A stretch of 32,000 nucleotides of DNA from Candidatus Jordarchaeales archaeon (lineage in GTDB: Archaea; Asgardarchaeota; Jordiarchaeia; Jordiarchaeales; Freyrarchaeaceae), in NCBI GenBank assembly GCA_038889235.1, contig JAWAHN010000003.1:413703-445702 (forward strand), given 5' to 3'. The notes under the pieces are model-generated. The model saw only the letters and a program-made list of their open reading frames with translations. It was not told where the DNA came from and did no database searches. Positions 9,849-30,239 of the stretch are shown here, in pieces (positions within the stretch are counted from its first letter, which is position 1; each line of letters starts with the position of its first letter). The position numbers and the translations under genes were made by a program.

Positions 9849-11249
9849 TTGAGCAGGGGTTATGGTAAGGTTGACGAGGAAGTGCTTAGCAGGCTGGTCG
9901 ATGCTTTAGGCGAAAGGAACGTTAAAACAGACGTTGTCGAAAGGTACGCTTACTCAACTGATGCGTCACTTTTCAGCTCGCTTCCAGACGTTGTGGTGAC
10001 GCCGGAGAGCTGCAGCCAAGTTGTGGAAGTAGTAAAGATAGCCTCGGAAAAACGTATCCCGGTGACGCCTAGAGGCGGCGGGACAGGGCTGTGTGGTGGA
10101 GCGGTCCCCGTTTACGGTGGGATAGTCGTCGACATGAGCAAGATGAACAGGATACTGGAGGTGGACCTTGAAAACTTCTGTGTCGTCACCGAAGCCGGGG
10201 TTACCCCTGAAAATCTCAATAAGGAGCTTGCGAAACATGGCTTCTTCTTCCCTCCTTCTCCTGGAAGCAAGAGGATGTGCACAATAGGAGGCATGATCGC
10301 AACCAACGCTGGCGGAATGCACGCGGTGAAATACGGTGTCACAAGGAACTTCGTACTCGGACTAAAGCTGGTTATCCCTCCAGGAGAAGTCTTAAACTTA
10401 GGCGGCAAGGTTCTCAAGAGGTGTCTGGGCTATGATCTGATTCAGCTTGTCGTCGGCTCTGAGGGGACCCTTGGCATAATCACCGAGGCGACGCTCAGGA
10501 TACTGCCGTTGCCCGAGGAGTCAGCGGTCGTTGTCGCCTTCTTCGACGACATTTCTACCGCAGCTAAAGTGGTTAATGCCGTGCTCAGGAGGGTTGTACC
10601 CTCGGCGATAGAAATCCTGGATAGTAGATCGATAGAGGCTGTGAACCGCTATATGCCGTCACTCAACTTGCCACAGGCGGGGGCAGCCCTGTACTTCGAG
10701 GTTGAAGGAAGCAGGCCGGAGGTTGAAAGGCAGGTGCAAGTGATAGTGGAGGCGTGTAAGGCGCATGGTGGGAGAATTGAGTGGACCACCGATCCGAAGG
10801 AGAAGGAAAAGCTCTTGGCTGGAAGGGAAGTTGTCGGAGGAGCAATAATGAACGTAGATCAGAGGAGGGTGAGGGTTTACGAAGCCGAAGACGTCTGCGT
10901 CCCCATAGCTCAGCTCCCCCGCTTCGTTGAGGAGGCACACCGCATCTCGGAAAAGTACGGGGTTCCCGTCTGCATATATGGACACGCTGGGGATGGCAAC
11001 TGTCACTCCGGCATAATGATAGACCCAACTAACAGGGAGGAGTGGGTGAAGATGCGGGCGATGGCGAAGGAGATTTACGAACTAGCTGTGAGGCTTGGTG
11101 GGAACATAAGTGGGGAGCACGGAATAGGGCTGCTGAGGGCAGGGTACATGGAGAGCATAAATGAGAGAGCACTGCAGTTGATGAGAAAAGTGAAAGAGGC
11201 GTTTGACCCCCAGGGAATTCTCAACCCGGGGAAGATGGGGCTCGACTGA
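9849..11249 (+). CDS. FAD-linked oxidase, GlcD / D-lactate dehydrogenase family
   Basis: PRGGGTGLCGGA FAD-binding motif, TIGGMIATNAGG, GHAGDGNCH, GEHGIG, DPQGILNPGK. RBS GAGGTG at 9836-9841 suggests co-transcription with carB. Confidence 0.88.
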   Translation: MSRGYGKVDEEVLSRLVDALGERNVKTDVVERYAYSTDASLFSSLPDVVVTPESCSQVVEVVKIASEKRIPVTPRGGGTGLCGGAVPVYGGIVVDMSKMNRILEVDLENFCVVTEAGVTPENLNKELAKHGFFFPPSPGSKRMCTIGGMIATNAGGMHAVKYGVTRNFVLGLKLVIPPGEVLNLGGKVLKRCLGYDLIQLVVGSEGTLGIITEATLRILPLPEESAVVVAFFDDISTAAKVVNAVLRRVVPSAIEILDSRSIEAVNRYMPSLNLPQAGAALYFEVEGSRPEVERQVQVIVEACKAHGGRIEWTTDPKEKEKLLAGREVVGGAIMNVDQRRVRVYEAEDVCVPIAQLPRFVEEAHRISEKYGVPVCIYGHAGDGNCHSGIMIDPTNREEWVKMRAMAKEIYELAVRLGGNISGEHGIGLLRAGYMESINERALQLMRKVKEAFDPQGILNPGKMGLD

Positions 11250-12290: not shown

Positions 12291-12425
12291 AAGGCCTCCG
12301 GCTTCCCAGCTCACTTTTGCAGGTCCCTTTTTCTAGGGGGAAAACCTTTATTTGAAAATGTTTTCATGTGAATTTTCTGGTCAAGCGTTAATCACACTGA
12401 AAGACTCTGATTGTGGTGTCTCCCA

Positions 12426-13106
12426 TTGAGTGATGCTGTCACCCTTATTGCGCGTGCCGTTGGAGGAGTTGAAGCCCGCCTCATAATACTTAGAGAGCTT
12501 TTAAGTGGGCCGAAGACCGGGGTGGAGTTGAGGTATGCCCTCGCCAGGAGACTGGGTGTCCCCCCTAGGGCGATCTCGGATGCGAAGATATACTTCAACC
12601 TTCAGGCCTTAGAGAACAGCGGAATCATAGTACGCTATAGGGATTGGAAGAACAAGTACGCTGAAATAAACCCGAAAATGCTTCAAGCCGTGAGGAAGTA
12701 TTTGAACATCACTGCTCCTGTTATGTGCCTCGCAGCCCTAGACTCTGAGCCCCTCCTTACAAAAGAGATAGGGTGGCGTTTAAGGGAGCAAGAAGGAATA
12801 TCGCCTAGCAGGTACATTTTCATAGCGGAGGACAAAATGAGGGGGAAAATCGGGGGGTTGACGGGGGAAGCGGAAGTGCTGTGGGTTGACGACGAGACGC
12901 TCCACGACTACGAGAGGGTTTACGAAATCGCCGAGGAAGCCCTCAAGAAAGCTATCTCTAAATATGAACCCATAATCGATGTGACGGACGGGACGAGGGT
13001 GACGGTCGCAGCCTTCCAGCAGCTCGCGTGGGAGTATGGGCTCCGCGTCTTCTACCTCAAGGGGAAGCCTTACGAGAAGAGAAGGGTGGTCTGGATTAGG
13101 GGCTAG
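12426..13106 (+). CDS. Winged-HTH (ArsR/PadR-like) regulator with a C-terminal CARF-like domain
   Basis: N-terminal RLIILRELLSGPKTGVEL...IYFNLQALENSGII wHTH. C-terminal Rossmann-like domain with IIDVTDGTRVTVAAF...LAWEYGLRVFYL, resembling the CARF D-x-T-x-G-x-K/R motif. Start placed at TTG 12426 (GGTG RBS). The stop overlaps the comB stop (CTAG, 13103-13106). Confidence 0.65.
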   Translation: MSDAVTLIARAVGGVEARLIILRELLSGPKTGVELRYALARRLGVPPRAISDAKIYFNLQALENSGIIVRYRDWKNKYAEINPKMLQAVRKYLNITAPVMCLAALDSEPLLTKEIGWRLREQEGISPSRYIFIAEDKMRGKIGGLTGEAEVLWVDDETLHDYERVYEIAEEALKKAISKYEPIIDVTDGTRVTVAAFQQLAWEYGLRVFYLKGKPYEKRRVVWIRG

Positions 13107-13786
13107 TACTCGACGAACATGCCGCCTTTAATCACAGGCACCACGCTGCTCGCGTTTAGCTGGGAGCAGTACTCGACATCCCTCCAGAGTCCTATGGAGG
13201 CGAGTTCTTTGGCGCTCGGCGAGTTCAAGACGCACTCTTTGTAGTCCGGTGGCTCCCTTCCTTCGACAAAGCACTTTATAACGCACGCCGTCACATAGTC
13301 CTCCGGGCTAAACTCCCCTCTCCTCCCGACGTGGACCACAGTGAGCTTCCTCCCAGTCTTAGTAGCCTCACTTCCAGCTGCTTCAGCCACAGCAGAAGCG
13401 TTCCTCAGGCAGCCTGCAAATACGGCTGGAGCCCCCATCGCCTGGCAGACCGCTTGCGTGAAGTTAGTGGTGGTCAAGACTACTATCTTTCCCTCAACGA
13501 CGTCACGGGTAAACTCCAATGGGGAGTTGCCGAAATCGAAGCCGGGGATCTTCAGCCCTCGCCTCTCGCCCGCCAGCAGGACGCCAACCCCTCGAGTCCT
13601 CAAAAGCTCCCTCGCCTTTCCTACAGCTTCTTCAATAGTGAGCGCTGGGACGACGCCCACGCCTCCATTTTCTAGTATTGTTGTAACTGTGGTACTGGCT
13701 CTCAGCGTGTCCACTACAACCAATATGTGCCCCTTCAATGCGGCTCTTAGAGCGCCTTCGGCGCCGAATGCCAACCTAACTATCAT
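13103..13786 (-). CDS. comB: 2-phosphosulfolactate phosphatase
   Basis: VVDTLRASTT, LAGERRG, FDFGNSP, LTTTNFT, GCLRNASAVA, EDYVTA. ATGA overlap with comA. Confidence 0.92.
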   Translation of the reverse strand: MIVRLAFGAEGALRAALKGHILVVVDTLRASTTVTTILENGGVGVVPALTIEEAVGKARELLRTRGVGVLLAGERRGLKIPGFDFGNSPLEFTRDVVEGKIVVLTTTNFTQAVCQAMGAPAVFAGCLRNASAVAEAAGSEATKTGRKLTVVHVGRRGEFSPEDYVTACVIKCFVEGREPPDYKECVLNSPSAKELASIGLWRDVEYCSQLNASSVVPVIKGGMFVEY

Positions 13787-14580
13787 TTCAACCCCTTTAA
13801 GAGGAGGTCTGGCATCGTATCCCCTCTGAGCCCGAGACGCAACGTTTCGAGCGACACCACGTCCTCCGGGTGAATGTTACCAAGGTTAACGTCTGGACCA
13901 AACCTCTTAATCAGCCACACTTGTTGAGACCTTAGTGGAGCCTCCCATATGATCTTCTCGTGTGGAACGGCTTGCACGATTGACTCGACAAAGTCCTTCT
14001 TCACGTCCCCCTTCGCGTCATAGGGCCCTATTCCGATGCCGCTCTCCCTTGCTTCGACAACAACGTAGTCAGCCCCGGCTTCGAGTTCACGCTTCATCAG
14101 CTCAACTCTTTCCGTGAGGGGGATGGATGCGTCCTCCTCTGGCTTCTTCTTTCCAACCTCGGTGATCACAGGGTTAAAGCCAAACCTTTTAGCCAGCCTT
14201 AGCAGTCCAAGCTTTTCTTCAACATTCATTCTAACAATTCCGTTCGAGATTTCAAGCGAGGAAAAACCTAACTCGCGCAGGAAAGAAAGAAACTCCTCAA
14301 CCTTATCTCTGGCGTAGGCAGCCTCCACGCTCGATCCGCCTGGGAGCGCCATCACCCCAAACTCCTCACAAAGCTTAATCTTCTCCTTCACAACATTCAG
14401 GGGCATGATGAGCCAAGTGCACCAGCCAAACTTCCAAAGGTCAACGTACTCGCCCGCAGCCTCCAAAACACTACGCATTTCCGACACACCAATACCACGG
14501 TCGATTACCAAAGTTAAACCGCGCGACCTAGGTTTTGAGCACCGCTTCACGAGGGAGAGCTCAAACAACTGGGGACACAT
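13783..14580 (-). CDS. comA: Phosphosulfolactate synthase
   Basis: KPRSRGLTLVIDRG, VDLWKFGWCT, LEISNG, EVGKK, VVVEARESG, IIWEAP, VNLGNI, LETLRLGLRGDT. RBS GGTGGT. Confidence 0.95.
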   Translation of the reverse strand: MCPQLFELSLVKRCSKPRSRGLTLVIDRGIGVSEMRSVLEAAGEYVDLWKFGWCTWLIMPLNVVKEKIKLCEEFGVMALPGGSSVEAAYARDKVEEFLSFLRELGFSSLEISNGIVRMNVEEKLGLLRLAKRFGFNPVITEVGKKKPEEDASIPLTERVELMKRELEAGADYVVVEARESGIGIGPYDAKGDVKKDFVESIVQAVPHEKIIWEAPLRSQQVWLIKRFGPDVNLGNIHPEDVVSLETLRLGLRGDTMPDLLLKGLK

Positions 14581-14644
14581 AGCACCACCCGACCCATACT
14601 ACCAAAAAAATCGCCATTAAAATCTAGCGCGAAAGAAGGAAGGG

Positions 14645-14728
14645 AAAGGGCATCCCCCTGCTAGGGGGCGGTCCCCACCCCCGCTGGACCTTTCAGGGGA
14701 TGAGTCATCCCCAGCCCGGGAACCCTTT
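14645..14728 (-). promoter_or_regulatory. SECIS element (eukaryote-type core) in the 3' UTR of vhuU
   Basis: Minus strand: GCTGGGG-ATGA-CTCATCCCCTG-AAA-GGTCCAGC-GGGGGTGGG-GA-CCGCC-CCCTAGC. AUGA at 14705-14708, AAA at 14691-14693 (11 nt after the core), GA at 14672-14673, 9-bp upper helix, and lower helices GCTGGGG/CCCTAGC, TCCC/GGGA and AAAGGG/CCCTTT. Confidence 0.75.
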
Positions 14729-14876
14729 AAGACTCGCTCAGCTCAATAGTCTTCTCAGCGATTTTCTCGCCCTTGTGGTTGACGACAACCAGGTGGGCGG
14801 CACAACCAAGTCAGCAGTCGTAAGCCCGCATGATAACCTCAATCAAGTTTAAGAGTTTAGGATCCAACTCCACCAT
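14727..14876 (-). CDS. vhuU: [NiFeSe]-hydrogenase small selenopeptide subunit VhuU (49 aa, Sec at codon 22)
   Basis: Manual translation MVELDPKLLNLIEVIMRAYDC-U(TGA 14811-14813)-LGCAAHLVVVNHKGEKIAEKTIELSES*. This matches the hydrogenase L2 motif (RAYDPxxxCxxH). GGAGGT RBS at 14886-14891. The upstream large subunit lacks this motif. Confidence 0.92.
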
Positions 14877-14895
14877 AAGGTTCAAACCTCCCTAA

Positions 14896-16218
14896 CTACT
14901 TAAACCAAGGCTCCGGGAACTTAAGCTTCTCGTGAATTCTTTCCTCCAGAACCTGCTTAGCTGCGACCAACATCGACTTTTCAACCGCGGCGATGTTGTT
15001 GTTAGTCGCCACGATAAGGTTCGCCTTCCTTATTACACCTTCATCGTCAGTCCAATAGTTGTATATCAATGTTCCACGTGGCGCCTCGACGATAGCTACA
15101 CCGTTACCCTCCCTTGGACGCACGTCGGCACGCTTAACATCGGAGCTAACTATCTCAGGGTCTTCTAGGAGCTTCCTGGCTTTCTCTATGGCTTCCATTA
15201 GCTCGACTATCCTAGCCCAGTTGTAAGCCAGCGTTGCGTGGCATGGCCTCCCAACAGCGTCCCTGAACTCCTTAAGCAGCTCCTGAGCTCTGGGAGTCTC
15301 CATCTTGTCAGCTACGTTGAGCCTAGCTAGTGGGCCGGCTCGCCATATACCTTCGGGGTACCCTGCAGGCTTGAAGAATATGTGTGTCGCGTAGGAGTGA
15401 GGAGCAACGTGCTCGCCAACATACTGCAAGTAGTCTTTCTTCGGGAAGTCTGCCACAATCTTACCTTCAGGGTCCATAACCCTGACGGTTGCTTTCCTGT
15501 CGTAAATTGTGTGAACACCGTTAACATTCAGCCCAACATAGTAGGTTGGAACTACGCCAAGCTTCGTGATCACGTCCAAGTAGCCTTCAACAACTTTCCT
15601 CGCAACTTCAATAGTGAAGTCCATAAGTCCCTCTGCTTCGTCGATGAGCTTTAGCAGCCTGTCCCGCTCCTCCTCAGTAAGCCTTTTCGCTTGACCGCCC
15701 GGAACACCAGTCACCGGGTGAACTGAGCGGCCTCCGATGGTCTTAACAATCTCTTGGCCAATCCTCATCAGAGCGATGGCTTTCTTGACAGCGTCGGGCA
15801 TATGCTTGAAAACACCTACAAGGTTTCTAATCGACGGGTCGGCGAACGGTCCAGCGAGGAAGTCCGGGGCGGCTAGAGCGTAGAAGTGTAGAGCGTGACT
15901 TGAAATCTGCTTACCTTGCATCATCAGGTCTCTAAGCTTCACGGCAGCGCTGGGCGGTTCAACATCCCATGCTGCTTCAACAGCCTCAACCGAGCAGACG
16001 TGGTGGGGCACGGGGCATATGCCGCAGATACGTGGCGTCAGTATTGGTGCTTCTTCAGCAAGCCTGCCCTCAAGGAACTTTTCGAACATACGTGTCAGCG
16101 TAACACAGAACTTAAGGTCCTTTACTCCGCCTTTCTCGTCCAGCTCGATTACCACATTCGCGTGTCCTTCAAGCCTTGTCGCAGGCTCGATAACAACAGT
16201 CTTTTCCTTCTTGCTCAT
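14896..16218 (-). CDS. mvhA: F420-non-reducing (group 3c) hydrogenase large subunit, split type lacking the C-terminal L2 motif (VhuA/MvhA)
   Basis: EPATRLEGH, L1 motif PRICGICPVPHH, GPLARLN, VEAPRGTL, ATNNN. The protein ends at ...FPEPWFK without DPCxxC. Confidence 0.93.
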   Translation of the reverse strand: MSKKEKTVVIEPATRLEGHANVVIELDEKGGVKDLKFCVTLTRMFEKFLEGRLAEEAPILTPRICGICPVPHHVCSVEAVEAAWDVEPPSAAVKLRDLMMQGKQISSHALHFYALAAPDFLAGPFADPSIRNLVGVFKHMPDAVKKAIALMRIGQEIVKTIGGRSVHPVTGVPGGQAKRLTEEERDRLLKLIDEAEGLMDFTIEVARKVVEGYLDVITKLGVVPTYYVGLNVNGVHTIYDRKATVRVMDPEGKIVADFPKKDYLQYVGEHVAPHSYATHIFFKPAGYPEGIWRAGPLARLNVADKMETPRAQELLKEFRDAVGRPCHATLAYNWARIVELMEAIEKARKLLEDPEIVSSDVKRADVRPREGNGVAIVEAPRGTLIYNYWTDDEGVIRKANLIVATNNNIAAVEKSMLVAAKQVLEERIHEKLKFPEPWFK

Positions 16219-16232
16219 CTACCAACACCCAC

Positions 16233-17144
16233 CTACTTCTTTTTAGACACGGCTTTCGGTATTATCGAGGACGGTAAGGTAAACTTTGAGAACGTACCCA
16301 CAACGTCTTTGACTGATTGAACAAGCTCCTCTGGGCTAACCGACTCGTAGTCCACTATGCTCGCTAAGGCGCTGAGCATCTTTGCTCCCTGGTCTAAAAC
16401 GTTTGGTCCGGGGCCCATGCAGCCTCTGCACGGCACCCCCGCCCTCGTGCAAACGGCTCCACACCCCTCCCTGGTCGCTGGCCCCATGCATATGTAGCCC
16501 TGCTCTAAGAGGCATTTTTCGGGGTCAGGTATGCCTTCAAACGCCCTCTTAACCTTCTTTATGGTTATGACTTCCGATTTGACGCGTGGGCATTCGTCAC
16601 AAAGCGTCCTTTCCTTGAGCTTTGGCATTTCTCCTCTTAGTAAGCTGGTGACCACTTCAGCTATCAGGGGCGGCTCGGGCGGGCATCCCGGAAGGAAGAG
16701 GTCGTATTTAACGTACTCGCGGTTTGGCTTAACGTACTCGAGCATCTTGGGGACATGCATGTCCGGGATTTTCTTGTCGACAACGCTTTCGGCTTCCATG
16801 AACTTCCGCTTTAAGCCTTCATCTATCTGGTAGAGGTTTAGCAGCGCTGGGCTTCCGCCGTAAGTCGAACAGGTGCCGTATGATACGAGCAGCTTGCACT
16901 TCTGCCTTGCAAGTTTCAACAAGTATAAGTCTTCTTCCGTCCTACAGAAGCCCTCGGTGAACCCTACGTCGACCGAGCCGTCGGGGAGCTTTTCAACGTC
17001 ATGCAACTTGTAGTCTACTACGGTGTGCCAGTATACTATTTCAAGTTGAGGTAGGACGTCGGCGAGGGTTTCATGTAAGTCTACGAGACTCTGGTGGCAC
17101 CCCCAACAAGAGGCGAGTTGTACAAACATAACCTTTACAGGCAT
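16233..17144 (-). CDS. mvhG: F420-non-reducing hydrogenase small (Fe-S) subunit
   Basis: LASCWGCH, TEGFCR, GTCSTYGG, PGCPP, LCDECPR, CLLEQGYICMGPATREGCGAVC...PCRGCMGP. Confidence 0.93.
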   Translation of the reverse strand: MPVKVMFVQLASCWGCHQSLVDLHETLADVLPQLEIVYWHTVVDYKLHDVEKLPDGSVDVGFTEGFCRTEEDLYLLKLARQKCKLLVSYGTCSTYGGSPALLNLYQIDEGLKRKFMEAESVVDKKIPDMHVPKMLEYVKPNREYVKYDLFLPGCPPEPPLIAEVVTSLLRGEMPKLKERTLCDECPRVKSEVITIKKVKRAFEGIPDPEKCLLEQGYICMGPATREGCGAVCTRAGVPCRGCMGPGPNVLDQGAKMLSALASIVDYESVSPEELVQSVKDVVGTFSKFTLPSSIIPKAVSKKK

Positions 17145-17155
17145 ACGTCGCCCTC

Positions 17156-17575
17156 CTACTTAGCTTTTCGGAGCGGGCTTGGTCCGAGCTCCTTTAAAAT
17201 GTTAACGAACTCCTCAACGGTTTTCACAAGCTCTGCGCCCTCACTAGCTGAAATCCACCTTAACATAAGTCTTTCCGGCTCAATCCCTAACTGTTTAAGC
17301 ATCTCCCTTAGCAACGCTATTCTACGCTCAGCCCTGTAATTTCCTTTCACGTAGTGGCAGTCTCCGGGGTGGCAGCCCGCAACTAGGACGCCGTCAGCAC
17401 CCAGCTCGAAAGCCTTGAGCACGAATTGAGGGTCAACCCTACCGCTGCAGAGCACTCTAATAATTCTCACGTTTGGGGGGTACTGCATTCTACTAGTCCC
17501 AGCCATGTCGGCGCCAGCGTACGAGCACCAATTGCAAAATATGCCTAGTATTTTGGGTTCAAAGTCGTCTGACAA
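17156..17575 (-). CDS. mvhD: Hydrogenase/Hdr [2Fe-2S] delta subunit
   Basis: [40 protein letters not shown]. All Cys codons, no in-frame TGA. Confidence 0.96.
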
Positions 17576-17766
17576 TTTTTCATCTCCCTACTTTTTCGAG
17601 GGCGCTGAACTAAAATTTCGTATTCACGAAGAGCCTTTTAATATTTTAAGCTTTTGGGAGAATTCAACTTCCAGTTTTTACTCAAAGAGCTCAGGCTGGA
17701 AACAAAAAGATATTTATTTTTGACGATATGTTTGATTGGCTGATATAGCTTCGGGAAGGGGTTTCC
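17576..17766. promoter_or_regulatory. Divergent promoter region between mvhD and hdrA
   Basis: AT-rich intergenic region with TATA-like CTTTTAATATTTTAAG near 17635-17650 and AAAAGATATTTATTTT near 17704-17720. Confidence 0.5.
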
Positions 17767-19728
17767 ATGAGTGATAAGAAAGGCGCCGAGAACGTCCGCA
17801 TAGGAGTTTTCGTGTGCCATTGTGGTACCAATATTGCTGGGGTCATAAACGTCGAGGAGCTCGTCAAATACGCTTCCAAGCTTCCGGGGGTTGTTGTCGC
17901 TAAGGATTACCGTTTCATGTGTTCCGACCCGGGCCAGAACATGATTAAGGAGGCCATAAGAGACTATAAGCTTAACAGGGTTGTGGTCGCAGCCTGCAGC
18001 CCGAGGCTTCACGAGGAAACCTTTAGGAAAGCCGTGGAGGCTGCTGGTTTAAACCCGTTCCTATTCGAGATGGCGAACATTAGAGAGCACTCAAGCTGGG
18101 TTCACATGAGGAGGCCTAAGGAAGCGCTAGAAAAGGCTAAAGACTTGATTAGAATGGCTGTCGCGAAAGTTAGGGTCTCAGAGCCGTTGGAAGTTAAAAT
18201 GGTGCCTGTCAAGGGAACGTGCGTCATTATAGGTGGCGGCGTTGCCGGAATTTCGGCTGCACTCGACTTAGCTGACGCGGGCTTCAAAGTACATCTTGTT
18301 GAGTCGTCACCTTCAATCGGTGGGCGGATGGCACAGCTGGACAAGACTTTTCCAACCATGGACTGCTCCGCCTGCATACTGACACCGTTAATGGTGATGG
18401 TTGCCCGCCATCCGAACATTACGCTTCACGCTTACAGTGAGGTCGTGAGTGTTGACGGGTACGTGGGGAACTTCAAGGTAAAGATAAGAGAGAAGTCGAG
18501 GTACGTGAAGAAGGAAGCGTGCACAGGGTGCGGTCTCTGTACTGACGTCTGCCCAGTACATGTGCCAAACGAGTTCGAGCTGGGGCTCGGCGTGAGAAAA
18601 GCAATATACGTTCCCTTCCCCCAGGCGGTCCCCAACACTTACACTATAGATAGGGATAAGTGCATAGAGTGCGAGTTGTGCACCAAGGTCTGCGAGGCCA
18701 AAGCAATAGACTTCAACATGCAGGACAAGGAGATCGAGATTGAAGCCGGAACGATAATAGTGGCGACTGGATATGACATCTTCCAGCCCTACGAAATGTA
18801 CCAGTACGGCTATGGCAGGTACGAGAACGTGATAACTTCTCTCCACATGGAGAGGCTCCTCAGCGCATCTGGGCCAACTGGAGGAAAGGTGATTGTCCCG
18901 TCGAGTGGTGAGAAGCCCAAGCGCGTAGCTTTCGTTCAGTGTGTGGGCTCAAGGGACGAGCACTACTTCCCCTACTGCTCGAGGGTTTGTTGCATGTACA
19001 GCTTGAAACACGCGAGACAGATAAAGGAGAAGTACCCTGACACCGAAGTGTACATCTTCTTCATAGACGTGAGAGCTTTCGGCAAGGGTTACGAGGAGTT
19101 CTACGAGATGGCTGCCAGAGAGTACGATGTGAAGATAGTAAGGGGCAAAGTGGCTGAGATATACGAGGACCCGAAGACCAAGAAATTACTCGTTAGGGCT
19201 GAAGACAGCCTTGTAGGCGAGCCCATAGAAATGGAGTTCGACATGGTTGTTCTCGCCACAGCAGTCAAGCCAAGTGCGGGAGCTGAAAAGATACAGCAGA
19301 TACTGAAGCTCTCTAGAAGCGCGGACGGATTCTTCCTAGAAGCCCACCCCAAGCTGAGACCAGTAGACACGTTCACTGACGGAGTATTTGTGGCAGGTAT
19401 GGCCCAAGGTCCGAAGGATATACCGGACACCGTGGCGCAGGCTAAGGGTGCGGCTGCGAGGGCTGCAGCTCTCATGGGCAAGGGAGAGGTCGCGATAGAG
19501 CCGTACTACGCCGTGGTCAACGAGGAAATATGCTCCGGGTGCAAGACGTGCTCCGGGATCTGCCCATACGGGGCAATAAGCTACAACGAGGACGGCAGAG
19601 CAGTAATAAACAGCGCTCTATGCAAGGGCTGCGGTGCATGCGCGGCAGCATGCCCATCAAACGCGATAGAGCCAAACCACTTCAAGTTCCGCCAGATCAT
19701 GGAACAGATACTGGCGGCGTTCGAGTAA
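17767..19728 (+). CDS. hdrA: Heterodisulfide reductase subunit A (electron-bifurcating flavoprotein)
   Basis: GVFVCHCG, AACSPRLHE, GGGVAG, LDKTFPTMDCSACIL, CTGCGLCTDVCP, QCVGSRD...YCSRVCC, GPKDIP, and a C-terminal double ferredoxin. Confidence 0.97.
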   Translation: MSDKKGAENVRIGVFVCHCGTNIAGVINVEELVKYASKLPGVVVAKDYRFMCSDPGQNMIKEAIRDYKLNRVVVAACSPRLHEETFRKAVEAAGLNPFLFEMANIREHSSWVHMRRPKEALEKAKDLIRMAVAKVRVSEPLEVKMVPVKGTCVIIGGGVAGISAALDLADAGFKVHLVESSPSIGGRMAQLDKTFPTMDCSACILTPLMVMVARHPNITLHAYSEVVSVDGYVGNFKVKIREKSRYVKKEACTGCGLCTDVCPVHVPNEFELGLGVRKAIYVPFPQAVPNTYTIDRDKCIECELCTKVCEAKAIDFNMQDKEIEIEAGTIIVATGYDIFQPYEMYQYGYGRYENVITSLHMERLLSASGPTGGKVIVPSSGEKPKRVAFVQCVGSRDEHYFPYCSRVCCMYSLKHARQIKEKYPDTEVYIFFIDVRAFGKGYEEFYEMAAREYDVKIVRGKVAEIYEDPKTKKLLVRAEDSLVGEPIEMEFDMVVLATAVKPSAGAEKIQQILKLSRSADGFFLEAHPKLRPVDTFTDGVFVAGMAQGPKDIPDTVAQAKGAAARAAALMGKGEVAIEPYYAVVNEEICSGCKTCSGICPYGAISYNEDGRAVINSALCKGCGACAAACPSNAIEPNHFKFRQIMEQILAAFE

Positions 19729-19956
19729 CGCGAACACCCAACTGCACCTCTTATACCTCCCTTTCTTTTCTCTGCTCGAGCCGCACACTTCTTCGACACG
19801 TTTCTTCCTTAAGTTGCTGACCCTGTGATCGCCACGTTTTTCGCCTAATCAAACCTGTAACGTTTTAACAAAGCCCTAGACAAATAGAGGAAACTTTTTT
19901 ATAGAATGCGCTCGAAGGTAGAGGTGAATGCTGACCAAGCGCTTAAGGTGATTGAT

Positions 19957-20511
19957 TTGTCAACTACACAGCTCATCAAAAAGTTTGACACCGACTTCAC
20001 GCAAGAAGTCATAGAGTATGCTTCCAAGTTCTTCGAAAACGTGGAAAACGTGAAGAGCTGCATTCAATGCGCAACATGCACCGGGTCTTGCCCCAGCGGA
20101 CGCGAAACCGCCTGGCGAGTGAGAAAACTGATAAGGCAGATCCAGCTTGGACTTAAAAACGCAGCAATAAGAAACGACGTTTTATGGGATTGCACTACAT
20201 GCTACACCTGCCAGGAGAGGTGTCCCAGGCTTATCCCGATAACGGATATCGTTCGAGCCGTGAGAAACATTGCTGTCCGTAACGGGTTCATGCTACCCAG
20301 ACACGTCCAGGTAGCTGGCCTCATGATCAAGCACGGCCATGCTGTTCCGATCAATGATGAGGTGAAGGCGGTGAGGAAGGAGATAGGGTTAAGCGAGCTT
20401 CCACCCACCGTCCACTCATACCCCGACGCGCTGGGGGAGGTTAAAAAGCTGCTTGACGAGACTGGATTCACTAAGTTAGTGGAGGAAGCGTCTAAGGGGG
20501 TTCAGAAATGA
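19957..20511 (+). CDS. hdrC: Heterodisulfide reductase subunit C
   Basis: CIQCATCTGSCPSG and WDCTTCYTCQERCPR. Start placed at TTG 19957 (GGTGA RBS; a TATA-like TTTTTATA near 19895 overlaps the longer ORF start at 19906). Confidence 0.93.
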   Translation: MSTTQLIKKFDTDFTQEVIEYASKFFENVENVKSCIQCATCTGSCPSGRETAWRVRKLIRQIQLGLKNAAIRNDVLWDCTTCYTCQERCPRLIPITDIVRAVRNIAVRNGFMLPRHVQVAGLMIKHGHAVPINDEVKAVRKEIGLSELPPTVHSYPDALGEVKKLLDETGFTKLVEEASKGVQK

Positions 20512-21398
20512 GCAAGTACGCTTATTTCTTAGGTTGTTTAACCCCAAACAGGTATCCGGGTATTGAGGCGGCGACTATTGATCTTTTGAGGATGTTTGAC
20601 ATCGAACTTGACTACATGAAGGGTACTTCTTGCTGTCCTGCTCCGGGGGTTTTCGGTAGCTTCGACCTTGAAACTTGGCTCACTGTGGCGGCTAGGAACA
20701 TTTCGATTGCCGAGGAAATGGGGAGGGATATCACGCTGACTTGTAACGGTTGCTTTGCCACTCTCCAAGAAGCAGACCACATGCTTAAGGGTAACAGGGA
20801 GCTTGTGAAGCTTATTAACAACCACCTGTCGAAGGTTGGTAGGCAGTATAAGGGGACGGTCAACGTAGTCCACGTGATAGAAATACTCTACAACGAAATA
20901 GGGCCGGAGAAGATAAGGGATAGGGTTGTCCAGCCGCTTGACGGAATCAAAGTTGCCTGTCATTACGGCTGCCACTTCCTTAAGCCGAGCTCTGTGAGGC
21001 AGAAGGGCAACCCGGAGAACCCGACTATGCTTGAGGAGCTCGTTGAAGCCGTAGGTGCAACACCAGTAGAATACAAGGATAAGAAGATGTGCTGCGGGGC
21101 AGGAGGAGGGGTCAGAGCTGGGAAGATAGATGTAGCATTAGAGATGACGCGGAAGAAGCTCGACGCCATGATCGAGGCGGGAGCAGACTGCATAACTACT
21201 CCATGCGTTTTCTGCCAGTTCCAGTTTGACCAGGGTCAGACAGAGATCAACAACAAGCTTGGGGTTGAGAAGTACAAGGTGCCAGTTGTCTTCATAACGC
21301 AACTTATTGGGTTAGCGCTGGGCATATCGCCGAGAAGGATGGGACTACACCGCCACAGAATACCAGTCAAACCCGTGCTTGATAAGATTTTCCACTAG
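20508..21398 (+). CDS. hdrB: Heterodisulfide reductase subunit B
   Basis: Two CCG domains: YFLGC, SCCPAPG, TCNGCF, HYGCHFL, MCCGAGGG, TPCVFCQFQFD. Confidence 0.95.
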   Translation: MSKYAYFLGCLTPNRYPGIEAATIDLLRMFDIELDYMKGTSCCPAPGVFGSFDLETWLTVAARNISIAEEMGRDITLTCNGCFATLQEADHMLKGNRELVKLINNHLSKVGRQYKGTVNVVHVIEILYNEIGPEKIRDRVVQPLDGIKVACHYGCHFLKPSSVRQKGNPENPTMLEELVEAVGATPVEYKDKKMCCGAGGGVRAGKIDVALEMTRKKLDAMIEAGADCITTPCVFCQFQFDQGQTEINNKLGVEKYKVPVVFITQLIGLALGISPRRMGLHRHRIPVKPVLDKIFH

Positions 21399-22053: not shown

Positions 22054-23178
22054 TTACTTTAGGCTTTCTATTTTTCTGGCGATGGCGTCTCCGACTTCGC
22101 TTGTCTTGCTTGGCTTGACGTTGGCGTATCTTCCCTTGCAGAGGTCTGCTGTCCTCACTTTTCCTTCTGCAAGTACTTCTGCCACCCCGCGCTCTATTAG
22201 TTGTGCCGCTCTCCTGCAGGATTCATCGCTGTGTCTTTGGGCAAGCCAGTCGAGCATCATTTTCGCCGACAGTATCGAGCCTATGGGGTTTGCCATGTTT
22301 TTTCCCGCTATGTCTGGGGCTGTCCCGTGTACTGGTTCGAACATGGCGTGCCTGTCTCCTATGTTCCCGCTTGGAGCCATCCCCATGCCTCCTATGAGCA
22401 CGGATGAGAGGTCTGAAAGAATGTCGCCGAACATGTTCGTGGTCACTATAACATCGTAGTGTTCCGGTGCCCTTATCATCCACTGAGTCATCGCATCCAC
22501 GTACACGTACTCGCGTTCAACCCCCGGGTACCTAGCGGCAACCTCATCGAAAATCTTCCTGAAGAATTTGCACCCGTCAAGCACGTTGCTCTTGTCCACG
22601 CAAGTCACCCTGCGCCTTCCATCAACTGGAGCCCCGTTCCTCGACAAACAAAGCTTGAAAGCGTAGTCTATGATCCTCTCGCACCCTTTCCTTGTCAGGA
22701 TTCTCACGTCTACGGCTGCCTCCTCAACTTCACCCCTGCTAAGGAATCCCTTAATCTGGGCGTAAAGGTCCTCGGTGTTCTCACGCACTATCACGAAGTC
22801 CACCTTGTCTTTTCCAGGGGCGAGAGGCTCAACACCACTGTAAAGGCGGGCGGGCCTAACGTTTGCATAAAGATCTAAGCCGAACCTTATGTCGAGGAGT
22901 ATCCTTATCCCTGCAAGCTGACCGTTCGGGAGAACGGCTTCGGGCCATCCGACCGCGCCGAAGAGTATGGCGTCAGCCTTCTTGCAAATGTCGAAAGCGT
23001 CTTCAGGCCACTCTCGTCCGGTTTCCAAGTAGTACATTCCACCGCACGGGACCTCTACGTAGTCAAGGTCGAAGCCACCGGCAACGCTTGCAGCAGTGTC
23101 CAAAACCTTGACTGCTTCGGGGACAACCTCCCGGCCGACACCGTCCCCTGGAAGGACAGCAATCTCGTAGCGCCTCAA
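22054..23178 (-). CDS. Isocitrate/isopropylmalate/tartrate dehydrogenase family beta-decarboxylating dehydrogenase
   Basis: LPGDGVG, LDLYANVRP, VRENTEDLY, VDKSNV, NMFGDILSD, FEPVHGTAPDIAGK, ANP. GAVGWP resembles tartrate/D-malate dehydrogenases. Confidence 0.9.
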   Translation of the reverse strand: MRRYEIAVLPGDGVGREVVPEAVKVLDTAASVAGGFDLDYVEVPCGGMYYLETGREWPEDAFDICKKADAILFGAVGWPEAVLPNGQLAGIRILLDIRFGLDLYANVRPARLYSGVEPLAPGKDKVDFVIVRENTEDLYAQIKGFLSRGEVEEAAVDVRILTRKGCERIIDYAFKLCLSRNGAPVDGRRRVTCVDKSNVLDGCKFFRKIFDEVAARYPGVEREYVYVDAMTQWMIRAPEHYDVIVTTNMFGDILSDLSSVLIGGMGMAPSGNIGDRHAMFEPVHGTAPDIAGKNMANPIGSILSAKMMLDWLAQRHSDESCRRAAQLIERGVAEVLAEGKVRTADLCKGRYANVKPSKTSEVGDAIARKIESLK

Positions 23179-23298
23179 CCATAAACACCTCTAAGGCGAT
23201 CCTAAGACCAAGAAACGAGAAACGCCAACTTAAAAGGTTCGCGCGAGAAAAAGCCGAAAGAACGATGAGAAGATAAAAGAGATGGAAATGTTGAGAGA

Positions 23299-24579
23299 TT
23301 AAACCAGCTGGTTGAGCAACTCTAGTAGTTCTACTACTTCGATTTTTGACCCGCTAGCGTTGACGGCGTCTCTCAGGTTCCTGACGCAGAACGGGCAGGA
23401 AGTCACTATGGCTTGGGCGCCTGTAGCCTCTGCTTCTTTAACTCTCTCTATGCCAGTCCACAGCGCGAGGTCGGGGAACTGGGTCTTAACTCCACCACCC
23501 GCTCCACAGCACCATGCGTCTTCCTTTATTCTGTACATTTCGACTAGTTGTAGGCCAGGTATTGCCTTGAGTATTTTCCTCGGAATCTCATACCACTCTT
23601 CTTTCTTCCTCTTGATCTCCCTCTCGTCGAGGAACCAGTTCGTGGACTTGGCTAGCTCCTCGCGTTCAAGATCGAGGGCTATGTGTCTCATGAGGTGGCA
23701 TGGGTCGTGCCAGGTTACCTTCTTGTTGTAGCTTCCCTTGAACTTTATCTTGCCCTGACCTATCAGGTCTGCTACCAGCTCGATAGTGTGCTTCGGAGTG
23801 AACGGCAGCTTGGATTTACTGTACTTGGGGTAGTCTACCTTGAATGTCCTGTAGCACCCGGCGCAGCTGAACACGAGCGTATCATAGTCCTTGAACGTCT
23901 TAAGGTTCTCGTTCATAACTCTCTTAGCCTCACTCCGCTGCCCCGTTCTGAAGAGCGGGGAGCCGCAGCAGACCTCGTCTTCGAGCACCGCGAACTCTAT
24001 TCCAAGCTTGTTCAAAAGTTCAGCGGTCGCCTTAGCGACCTGCTTCTCTCTGTATGAAGCGGTGCAACCGACGAAGTATGCGACTTTGGCATCCTTCTTG
24101 GGCTTGACCTTTGTTCCTTCAAGCCACTTAGTTCTATCCTCGTGTTTTTCAGCGTACGGGTTGTTAACCTGACTTATGTTCTTGCCTAGAGCAGCGGTCT
24201 TGGGCAGTAATGGGATGCCCGCCTCGACACAGGCCGCCCTCGCAGCCTCAATAAGCTCGACGGTGGGCAGCTTGTTCTCGCACTGCGCCTGGCAGTTGCC
24301 GCATGTAGTGCAGGGGTAAATTAGGTCTCTCACACTTTCACTTGGTACAAGGCTTCCTTCAAGCATCGACCTGATAATCCACATTCTTCCACTGTTTAGG
24401 TAGCCTTCCCAAAGCTTGTAGTAAGATCCAGAGGGGCACCCTTCTATCATTCCTTCGTAAAGCGTGCCTTTGTACTCTCCGATGCCCTCCCTGTCTGGTT
24501 CTCCTGAGTAGGAGAACATGCATGCTTTGCAGTGTATGCACCTGAACAGTTCCTTCTTTAATGCTAGTAGGTCTTCCAT
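23299..24579 (-). CDS. HdrD/GlcF-like Fe-S oxidoreductase (2x[4Fe-4S] plus two CCG domains)
   Basis: CIHCKAC...CP, CTTCGNCQAQC, YFVGC, VCCGSP, FSCAGC, WHDPCH, CCGAGGG, TSCPFC. Start placed at ATG 24579. TATA-like AAAAAGTTTAAAAA lies upstream. Confidence 0.85.
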   Translation of the reverse strand: MEDLLALKKELFRCIHCKACMFSYSGEPDREGIGEYKGTLYEGMIEGCPSGSYYKLWEGYLNSGRMWIIRSMLEGSLVPSESVRDLIYPCTTCGNCQAQCENKLPTVELIEAARAACVEAGIPLLPKTAALGKNISQVNNPYAEKHEDRTKWLEGTKVKPKKDAKVAYFVGCTASYREKQVAKATAELLNKLGIEFAVLEDEVCCGSPLFRTGQRSEAKRVMNENLKTFKDYDTLVFSCAGCYRTFKVDYPKYSKSKLPFTPKHTIELVADLIGQGKIKFKGSYNKKVTWHDPCHLMRHIALDLEREELAKSTNWFLDEREIKRKKEEWYEIPRKILKAIPGLQLVEMYRIKEDAWCCGAGGGVKTQFPDLALWTGIERVKEAEATGAQAIVTSCPFCVRNLRDAVNASGSKIEVVELLELLNQLV

Positions 24580-24953
24580 TTCGCCATCCCCACGATACAT
24601 TAATTTAGTTTATTTTTTAAACTTTTTGTTCCGCACAGAGGGGGTTTTCGTCTCTCCATCGAAGAGTACTGGATATAAATTTTGTGTCGCAACCCCCTTG
24701 CAGGCAGCTTCTTCGAACATATTAACCCTAAAAACGTGGACACTACTCCACTCTAACCCAGCCCTCTTTAAGAACCACCTGCTGGTTTTTCACCCAGTCG
24801 CTTCGCGTCAGCCGTTGAGGGCGCTGCCGTTTGCCGCTCCCGCCGCCACATGTTTTTCTCTACAAGTTCTCCGTTTTAGCCTGCATCGACTTGAAAAAGC
24901 GCAGCCCTAACTTGCCTCTGCGACACTATACTATGCGGGGCTTGTGTATCTCG

Positions 24954-28881: not shown

Positions 28882-29370
28882 TTGGGTGCATTCGCTCCCG
28901 GTGGTCTCGAAAGCGCGGCAACGCTTCCGAAAAATATCTTGAAATACTGCATGCAGTGCTCGCTGTGCTCGAGCGTCTGCCCCACAGCCCGCCTCGTCAA
29001 AGAGTTTAACCCTAGACGCATAGTTTGGGGAGCGATCCTGGGTCTCGAGGATGACGCTGTGGAAAACGGCAGCGTGTGGTTCTGCCTTAGTTGCCACCTC
29101 TGCTCCGAGGTATGCCCCATGAAGGTGAAGGTTTCAAGCCTGATGACGTTCTTCAAAAACCTGCTCGCTGAAAGGGGGAAAATCCCAGAGGGGGTCCTAC
29201 AGGAGGCGAGCATGATTTTCAAGACTGGGAGAGGGGTGCCATACTCGCCCGCCGTCGAGAAGAGGAGGGCTTCTCTATCGCTTCCCCCACTTCCACCCGT
29301 TGACATCGAGGAGATTAAAAAGCTGCTGGGCAGGCTGAAGCTACCGATCGAGGGAGGAGAGGGGAAATGA
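28882..29370 (+). CDS. hdrC: Heterodisulfide reductase subunit C paralogue
   Basis: CMQCSLCSSVCP and WFCLSCHLCSEVCPM. TTG start follows a GGAGG RBS. ATGA overlap with the next gene. Confidence 0.88.
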   Translation: MGAFAPGGLESAATLPKNILKYCMQCSLCSSVCPTARLVKEFNPRRIVWGAILGLEDDAVENGSVWFCLSCHLCSEVCPMKVKVSSLMTFFKNLLAERGKIPEGVLQEASMIFKTGRGVPYSPAVEKRRASLSLPPLPPVDIEEIKKLLGRLKLPIEGGEGK

Positions 29371-30239
29371 CGGATTATTCGCTCTTCTTGGGGTGCATTA
29401 TCCCCTTACGGTTCCCCTTCCTTGAAGCGTCCTCGAGGAAAGTGCTTGACCTTCTGGGCGTGAGGTGTGAAACGCTTAAGGGTGCAAGTTGCTGCCCCGA
29501 CCCTGTTGGCGTCCAGTCTGTTAGCTTCAAGGCGTGGCTTTACATTGCTGCTAGGAACCTAGCGCTCGCCGAGGAGGAGGGGAGGGACGTTTTGACTCTT
29601 TGCAGCGGGTGCTTTGAGACCCTTAAGACCGCCAGGGAGATTCTGCTGCAGAGCCCCGAGCTCATGGAGGAGGTGAACGAGGCCCTAAAGAGCATAGATA
29701 GGGAGTTTAAGGGGGAGGTAGACGTCGTGCACCTAGTCGAAGCTATATACAGAGTTGGGCCCGGAAAGGTGAGAAACATGGTTGTGAGGGAGCTAGACGC
29801 CGGGGTGGCGGTTCACTACGGGTGCCACTTGTTGAGGCCAAGCGAGCACCTTAGGTTCGACGACCCGGAGAACCCGAGGAAGCTGGATGAGCTCGTCGAG
29901 GCGCTCGGTGCCCGGAGCGTTGAGTACGAGTACAAGCACCTGTGCTGCGGGGCGACTGTGGGCAACGTCAAGAGGGATTTAGCCCACGAGTACGTTAAGT
30001 GGAAGCTTAAGTTTATCGCTAGATCGGGGGCGGAGTGCATGGTTGTAGCCTGCCCCTTCTGCTTTGCGCAGTACGACCTTGGACAGGTAGAGCTCAGTAG
30101 GAGGGGGGAGAGGTTCAACCTGCCAGTCTTCTACTACCCTGAAATGCTCGGCCTAGCTTTAGGTTGCAGCTATAGGGAGCTTGGGCTACACATGCACAGG
30201 ACGAGCGTGGAGCCCTTCCTGAGAAAACACATACTTTAA
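29367..30239 (+). CDS. hdrB: Heterodisulfide reductase subunit B paralogue
   Basis: LFLGC, SCCPDP, LCSGCF, HYGCHLL, LCCGA, ACPFCFAQYD. Confidence 0.92.
   Translation: MTDYSLFLGCIIPLRFPFLEASSRKVLDLLGVRCETLKGASCCPDPVGVQSVSFKAWLYIAARNLALAEEEGRDVLTLCSGCFETLKTAREILLQSPELMEEVNEALKSIDREFKGEVDVVHLVEAIYRVGPGKVRNMVVRELDAGVAVHYGCHLLRPSEHLRFDDPENPRKLDELVEALGARSVEYEYKHLCCGATVGNVKRDLAHEYVKWKLKFIARSGAECMVVACPFCFAQYDLGQVELSRRGERFNLPVFYYPEMLGLALGCSYRELGLHMHRTSVEPFLRKHIL

Follow-up and report, generated by a model that had tools for sequence, protein, structure and literature searches.

The present analysis concerns a 32,000-nucleotide (nt) stretch of contig JAWAHN010000003.1 (hereafter the window) from the genome of a Candidatus Jordarchaeales archaeon (G000; 2.14 Mb, 95% complete), in which comA and comB, two genes of coenzyme M (CoM) biosynthesis, stand behind the genes of an Mvh-type hydrogenase and near those of a heterodisulfide reductase (Hdr). 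Nine genes were confirmed where the first-pass annotation had placed them: mvhD, mvhG, mvhA, vhuU, comA and comB, with a selenocysteine insertion sequence (SECIS) between vhuU and comA, constitute one run on the minus strand, which is divergent from hdrA-hdrC-hdrB on the plus strand. The gaps measure 11–19 nt within mvhD-G-A-U and 146 nt between vhuU and comA. The explanation that we regard as best, at a probability of roughly 0.6, is that two separately transcribed units meet here at the breakpoint of an inversion and that CoM is a redox thiol for Hdr. The features of the locus are:

12411–13106, plus strand: gene for a winged-helix and CARF-like protein, convergent with comB, beside comAB in 11/11 genomes of the order
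13103–13786, minus strand: comB, 2-phosphosulfolactate phosphatase family, 227 amino acids (aa; PF04029, 175.9 bits), overlapping comA by 4 nt
13783–14580, minus strand: comA, phosphosulfolactate synthase, 265 aa (TIGR03849, 288.6 against a cut-off of 280)
14581–14668, minus strand: junction attributed to the inversion, with a leader shorter than in relatives; the reciprocal junction, comE to gene Y, is at about 288,850 on contig C3
14668–14604, minus strand: elements of the junction, namely a GC hairpin (14668–14654), a pyrimidine tract (14650–14632), a weak TATA-like TTTTAATG (14622–14615) and a run of seven T (14610–14604)
14670–14708, minus strand: SECIS for vhuU, eukaryote-like type I (AUGA, 9-bp stem, AAA loop, GA)
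14727–14876, minus strand: vhuU, 49-aa selenopeptide that completes the split [NiFeSe] large subunit; TGA at codon 22 conserved in the orthologues checked
14896–16218, minus strand: mvhA/vhuA, group 3c hydrogenase large subunit, N-terminal part, 440 aa (PF00374; best NCBIfam match VhuA, 513.9, below its cut-off of 800)
16233–17144, minus strand: mvhG, hydrogenase small subunit (PF01058; best NCBIfam match VhuG)
17156–17575, minus strand: mvhD, [2Fe-2S] adaptor, cysteine form (PF02662, 194 bits)
17767–19728, plus strand: hdrA, bifurcating flavoprotein, cysteine form, 653 aa (NF040770, 960.7 bits)
19906–20511, plus strand: hdrC (TIGR03290, 216.1 against 160)
20508–21398, plus strand: hdrB (TIGR03288, 434.1 against 345.15)

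The same gene layout recurs in independent assemblies and in three other species of the genus, which rules out a misassembly. The comparison set consisted of 11 Jordarchaeales genomes, five from the host family and six from the other family (family 2); the host genus is made up of G000, G001, G002 and G003, and G004 represents the sister genus. The vhuU-SECIS-comA junction is present in all four genomes of the host genus (the G003 contig begins inside vhuU) and in 0/7 outside it. The order comD-comE-(thrC-like)-comA-comB was found in G004 and five family-2 genomes, the contig of the sixth beginning just before comA, and in the closed genome G006 about 635 kb separate mvhA from comA. An unrelated gene, termed here gene Y, follows vhuU in G004, G006 and G008, with a small GTPase gene intervening in family 2. 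The reciprocal junction, comE to gene Y, is present in G000, G002 and G003. The host comDE are located on the same contig as the window, about 138 kb distant (C3, about 289 kb), and the statement of the first-pass annotation that the window holds no mcr, comC or comDE gene was upheld. One inversion of about 25 kb explains both reciprocal junctions, the segment whose inversion yields them lying at about 35.4–60.5 kb on the G004 contig; that a single event took place is what we infer, and the host-genus layout appears to be the derived one, because the outgroup keeps comDE and comAB together. In the ancestor of the host genus the inversion would have broken the comD-comE-(thrC-like)-comA-comB cluster, setting comAB with their own promoter behind the vhuU SECIS and gene Y behind comE, and the distance of about 139 kb that now lies between the two junctions of the host genome goes back to a later rearrangement. 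The winged-helix/CARF-like gene, a constant neighbour of comAB order-wide, marks the block that moved. Since the comAB-mvh adjacency is confined to one genus and falls on an inversion breakpoint, it was rejected as a conserved operon, and the functional meaning previously attached to it was not borne out; the adjacency adds little and, being a breakpoint, is no evidence for CoM as an Hdr substrate. It had been proposed that lack of com-hdr synteny in relatives, together with lack of any downstream CoM pathway, would speak against a link between the two systems; such synteny stops at the limits of the genus, whereas the downstream pathway is for the most part there.

The comAB pair is best read as its own transcription unit, because each gene that moved seems to have taken its promoter block with it. 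A GTAAG-TTTTAAAG block is located about 50 nt before comA in G001–G004, irrespective of the upstream gene, and gene Y likewise retains its own block at its new place. Separate transcription of comA, which had been suggested from a TATA-like box at 14615–14622, is thereby favoured through the block conserved in relatives, but the box itself is not clearly that element: TTTTAATG is out of register with the conserved TTTTAAAG box upstream of comA and aligns with a less conserved element, and TTTAA cores are common in host intergenic DNA (0.43 per 100 bases). The host comA leader is about 45 nt shorter than in relatives. What weighs against a full separation of the two units is that the comA promoter block looks eroded in the host genome, and some read-through from mvh is possible.

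The hydrogenase itself is split. MvhA ends without the C-terminal nickel motif, which is supplied by vhuU as RAYDCULGCAAH, the in-frame TGA being codon 22 in the window and in all 7 orthologous loci checked. The element behind it has the AUGA core at 14708–14705, a 9-bp stem, a 13-nt loop and GA at 14673–14672, and thus agrees with type I (AUGA_[G/A]A core, 7–15 bp stem, 8–20 nt loop, position 3′ of a UGA-selenocysteine gene). Across five distinct sequences 97.8% of the stem cells pair, with two pairs changed on both sides, against 56–63% in slid alignments. The element is not the minimum-energy fold of the region (z −0.57) and gave no Rfam match; the published Asgard type I SECIS model fits it (PMC11227280). 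Immediately past the SECIS comes another short GC hairpin (14654–14668, minus strand), which is conserved behind vhuU in both families and may be a lower helix of the SECIS or a terminator. For tRNA-Sec there was no ARAGORN match, but the run was made without intron mode and is uninformative. In all Jordarchaeales checked, the nickel motif of VhuU reads D-C-U, i.e., an extra cysteine adjoins the selenocysteine, where VhuU of Methanococcales presumably has D-P-U. In comparison with the MvhAGD-HdrABC and VhuAUGD-HdrABC complexes of Methanococcales (PDB 5ODC/5ODR, 9SFI), the same subunits are encoded, including the large subunit split with a selenocysteine peptide, whereas the Jordarchaeales SECIS is eukaryote-like, the run contains no polyferredoxin gene and an Mcr that could form the disulfide is lacking.

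ComA passes the archaeal equivalog TIGR03849 and matches the M. jannaschii ComA structure 1QWG over its full length (E 3e-62), the alignment retaining D40, K43, E103, E133, K137, R170 and E171, which we take to be the catalytic positions. ComB passes PF04029 (175.9 vs. 26.4), does not reach the equivalog TIGR00298 (121 vs. 175) and matches PDB 1VR0 (E 2.4e-35); throughout the order (11/11 genomes) comB stands together with comA. Outside the order, comA was found in 3/240 other Asgard genomes searched, as against 11/11 within it. The host ComA is 74–76% identical to copies on contigs labelled Jordarchaeales/Jordarchaeia, and the Jordarchaeales sequences form one clade (98/96) that branches along the family and genus split. 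Their closest named relatives outside the order are from Methanobacteriales (43–47% identity), and the unrooted tree gives no supported sister that would point to a donor. The com genes are under purifying selection, with dN/dS of about 0.07–0.13 for comB where dS is unsaturated and of about 0.04–0.13 for all com genes tested, dS being near saturation.

Elsewhere in the host genome, comD (TIGR03845, 172.2 vs. 147.95), comE (TIGR03846, 250.5 vs. 221.5) and MMP16/ComF (TIGR03287, 502.8 vs. 363.95; C3:66420–67682) lie above their curated cut-offs. MMP16, the main CoM synthase in Methanosarcina (PMC12068725), passes in 4/5 genomes of the host family and in G005 is positioned inside the com cluster. 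Genes for four of the five CoM steps are therefore encoded, and because comD, comE and MMP16/ComF pass, a CoM pathway is highly probable in the host, as one half of an earlier suggestion held; the other half, a use of this CoM in Mcr/Acr-type metabolism, gained no support, as mcrA and mcrB were each found in 0/11 genomes of the order, including a 95% complete and a closed one. In the route envisaged, ComA would add sulfite to phosphoenolpyruvate (PEP), ComB would remove the phosphate to give L-sulfolactate, some enzyme other than ComC would oxidise the latter, ComDE would decarboxylate the product and MMP16 would add the thiol of CoM. Compared with the type 1 (PEP-dependent) pathway of class I methanogens, ComA, ComD, ComE and MMP16 reach curated cut-offs in the host, but a ComC-family gene is missing, ComB stays under the equivalog cut-off and there is no Mcr; the type 2 pathway differs by its cysteate synthase, for which no Jordarchaeales gene was found.

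Several observations weigh against this pathway and against its service to Hdr. A ComC-type Ldh_2 gene is present in 0/5 host-family genomes vs. 6/6 in family 2 (where the genes score below the NF040650 cut-off), and a custom profile, run on six frames at maximum sensitivity, revealed no ComC. The Ldh_1 family was not found in the 95% complete host genome, cysteate synthase (TIGR03844) was found in 0/11 genomes of the order at E 1e-40, and MMP16 is above cut-off in only 1/6 family-2 genomes. ATP sulfurylase was found in 0/4 genomes of the host genus, which leaves the sulfite supply unexplained; because of this, sulfite would have to come from outside or by another route. Candidate genes for coenzyme B (CoB) synthesis (four genes of the LeuA family, two of the HacA family and two of the IPMDH family, for none of which a cut-off allows assignment to Aks) are indistinguishable from leucine/lysine paralogues, and CoB synthesis in the host is possible. 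Finally, the HdrB signature of the window recurs in Asgard family f7, where methanogen-type HdrB is present in 58/60 genomes and comA, comE and cysteate synthase in 0/60.

Various genes were considered as substitutes for ComC. An FMN_dh match was rejected, being by sequence and context a type II isopentenyl-diphosphate isomerase, and no LUD/LutC gene was found. The glcD-like gene at 9849–11249, of a family that is presumably D-specific, is no special candidate, its orthologues occurring also in ComC-containing genomes; LarA-family genes do not stand out either, being present in both families and in no case near com genes. A LarA-family racemase (four copies) acting together with a D-specific 2-hydroxyacid dehydrogenase, either Dld/HdrD or an NAD-linked one, is an unproven candidate for the third step. 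We put forward only tentatively the full version of the scheme, i.e., a type 1 CoM route with an undescribed, non-ComC third enzyme in which CoM acts solely as the redox thiol of Hdr and both Mcr and a zinc-type CoM methyltransferase are lacking. The thrC-like gene of the ancestral com cluster (L021 8104–9378, plus strand; L020 7600–8872, plus strand) is a divergent, threonine-synthase-like pyridoxal-phosphate gene, frameshifted in G004, missing from the G006 com cluster and without an orthologue in the host genome; as a cysteate synthase it was rejected (score 63 vs. a cut-off of 324.9).

All subunits of MvhADG(U)-HdrABC are present, with HdrB and HdrC above their CoB-CoM cut-offs. Among the five hdrB-like genes examined only that of the window passes (paralogues at 342.5, 315.8, 222.4 and 208.8), and the closest PDB matches of its product are methanogen Hdr (E 5e-112 and 5e-110). 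Judged by the contact and catalytic residues of 5ODR (PMC13261682; PMC13518236), the window HdrB retains 7/8 positions (R14, G46, E87, H154, G198, R201 and F233), and the four host paralogues have lost most of them. The eighth, position 240, is Q in the host, V in another solved methanogen HdrB and Arg in no Jordarchaeales sequence; as it varies among methanogens too, R240Q was rejected as a sign of a new thiol. The retained residues lean towards CoM as one half of the Hdr disulfide, but they cannot prove its use, since family f7 shows the same signature without com genes. Concerning other uses of CoM, the search for mcrA did pick up a divergent sequence in one further Asgard genome, and an MtrAH fusion is present in the host. 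In M. mazei MtaA (4AY7) zinc is bound by H-x-C and C; the best MtaA-like protein of the host (C3:54363–55385), which is below the family cut-offs, has S-x-P and S instead, and a motif scan of the other four URO-D-family genes gave no full zinc-ligand set. Because neither Mcr nor a zinc-type CoM methyltransferase was found, the most likely role of CoM is that of a redox thiol for Hdr and not of a methyl carrier. It would pair with CoB or a CoB-like thiol in a disulfide turned over by MvhADGU-HdrABC, with either uptake or release of H2, and linked to HdrD-type dehydrogenases.

It has to be asked whether the sulfolactate made by ComAB is an end product in itself or goes into some other sulfonate (a solute, or the decoration of a lipid or glycan), with the route to CoM broken in the host family and Hdr using a scavenged or unrelated thiol. 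The gap at ComC, Ldh_1 and cysteate synthase would suit this, as would the host comDE following nucleotidyltransferase and CDP-alcohol phosphatidyltransferase genes, the position of comDE with cysteate synthase among glycosylation-like genes in other Asgard families and the operation of the f7 Hdr without com genes; it is nevertheless rather unlikely, given that comA, comB, comD and comE are retained order-wide under purifying selection, that MMP16 passes in most host-family genomes and that the ancestral layout groups the com genes together, in one case along with MMP16. Improbable is also a product that is a CoM analogue, another sulfonate-derived thiol preferred by the host HdrB. That idea of the first-pass annotation gained no positive support, its sole opening being the ComC gap: methanogen Hdr accepts some analogues, e.g., with carboxylate replacing sulfonate (PMC13261682), and position 240 is non-Arg in every Jordarchaeales HdrB, but that position varies among methanogens, the CoM-side glycines are conserved, and after sulfopyruvate ComDE and MMP16 would give CoM itself by established chemistry. 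Methane or alkane metabolism of the Mcr/Acr type, to which the usual company of MMP16 and com genes with Mcr (PMC12068725) and the MtrAH fusion might point, is largely refuted and hardly credible, as mcrA and mcrB were not found in any of the 11 genomes, although the mcrA search did yield a divergent match elsewhere in Asgard archaea, and the portions of PMC9723677 and PMC11291895 dealing with the class report no Mcr.

A further alternative accepts the inversion and holds that it was retained because read-through ties CoM supply to Mvh-Hdr expression, so that comAB would be a functional extension of the operon. The shared strand, the 146-nt gap, the persistence of the junction in 4/4 genomes with synonymous sites near saturation and the shortened comA promoter block of the host all fit, and, independently, the genes cysteate synthase-comDE-MMP16 follow directly on mvhGA-hycI in one Wukongarchaeia-like genome. 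Against it, the other three genomes of the genus retain the pyrimidine tract after the SECIS and the full TATA block, the genus shows a largely stable gene order, in which the junction could persist without selection, the same inversion parted comAB from comDE, and the com cassette is absent from seven other contigs of the Wukong MvhA cluster. We consider such an extension unlikely, and the meeting of two separately transcribed units at a breakpoint is preferred.

Some observations stand beside these arguments. The Wukongarchaeia-like genome (G012, so assigned by MvhA cluster labels) carries, at L094 6231–12899 on the minus strand, mvhG-mvhA-hycI and, directly behind these, the genes for cysteate synthase, a fused ComDE and MMP16, which together make up a full type 2 CoM set; methanogen-type HdrB was not found in this genome, and the case was rejected as a second instance of the mvh-com arrangement, being a single-genome insertion. 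In Asgard family f9 (e.g., L087–L092, L098, L099, L102 and L103) many genomes have comDE (31/54) and MMP16, and neither comA nor cysteate synthase. In L113, L114 and L115 (families f12 and f21) the genes for a PAPS-reductase-like protein, cysteate synthase and a fused ComDE stand among glycosylation-like genes and may supply sulfonate to glycans and not to CoM. The hdr locus is often rearranged: several kb of unrelated genes split the hdrA-hdrC interval in G004 (C5, 65.9–72.4 kb) and G006, and the orientation of hdrA is reversed in G006 and G008. Further along the window (22054–24600, minus strand, and 28882–30239, plus strand) there are a gene of the isopropylmalate/tartrate dehydrogenase family that converges with hdrB, a gene for an HdrD-like protein and another hdrC-hdrB pair; the HdrB of this pair is without most CoM/CoB contact residues. 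The winged-helix gene at 12411–13106 belongs to no Pfam or NCBIfam family, clusters with archaeal hypothetical proteins, has a paralogue at C1:94643–95188 and gave HFX_2341/Csa3/CARF matches with scores below 0.8, to be read as a lead only.

The CoM genes and a CoM/CoB cycle through Hdr-Mvh in Jordarchaeia are already published, and in this respect the finding is mostly ordinary. In its account of these lineages, Sun et al. 2021 (PMC9723677) reported comA, comB, comC and comDE without Mcr in Sif- and Jordarchaeia and proposed a CoM/CoB cycle between Dld-HdrD and Hdr-Mvh, and the corresponding part of Valentin-Alvarado et al. 2024 (PMC11291895) described CoM genes, VhuU and SECIS elements in Freyarchaeia and named the Hdr substrate an unidentified heterodisulfide. 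The content found here is the same as far as those accounts go, i.e., comA, comB, comDE, MtrAH, Mvh-HdrABC with VhuU, Dld-HdrD pairs and no Mcr. According to these accounts ComC is present and the last enzyme is not known, whereas ComC was not found in the host family and MMP16 is present; the comAB-mvh junction and its origin go unmentioned in them. What the present analysis adds is the inversion, the presence of MMP16, the gap at ComC throughout the host family and the MtaA homologue without zinc ligands.

Which substrate does Hdr turn over in archaea that have no Mcr? This is an open question, for which Jordarchaeales offer a good test, since genes for four of the five CoM steps are encoded, including the recently confirmed synthase MMP16. 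If CoM were found there, the gap at ComC would indicate a novel enzyme, and relatives of eukaryotes would prove to employ a cofactor of methanogens as a redox carrier of general use.

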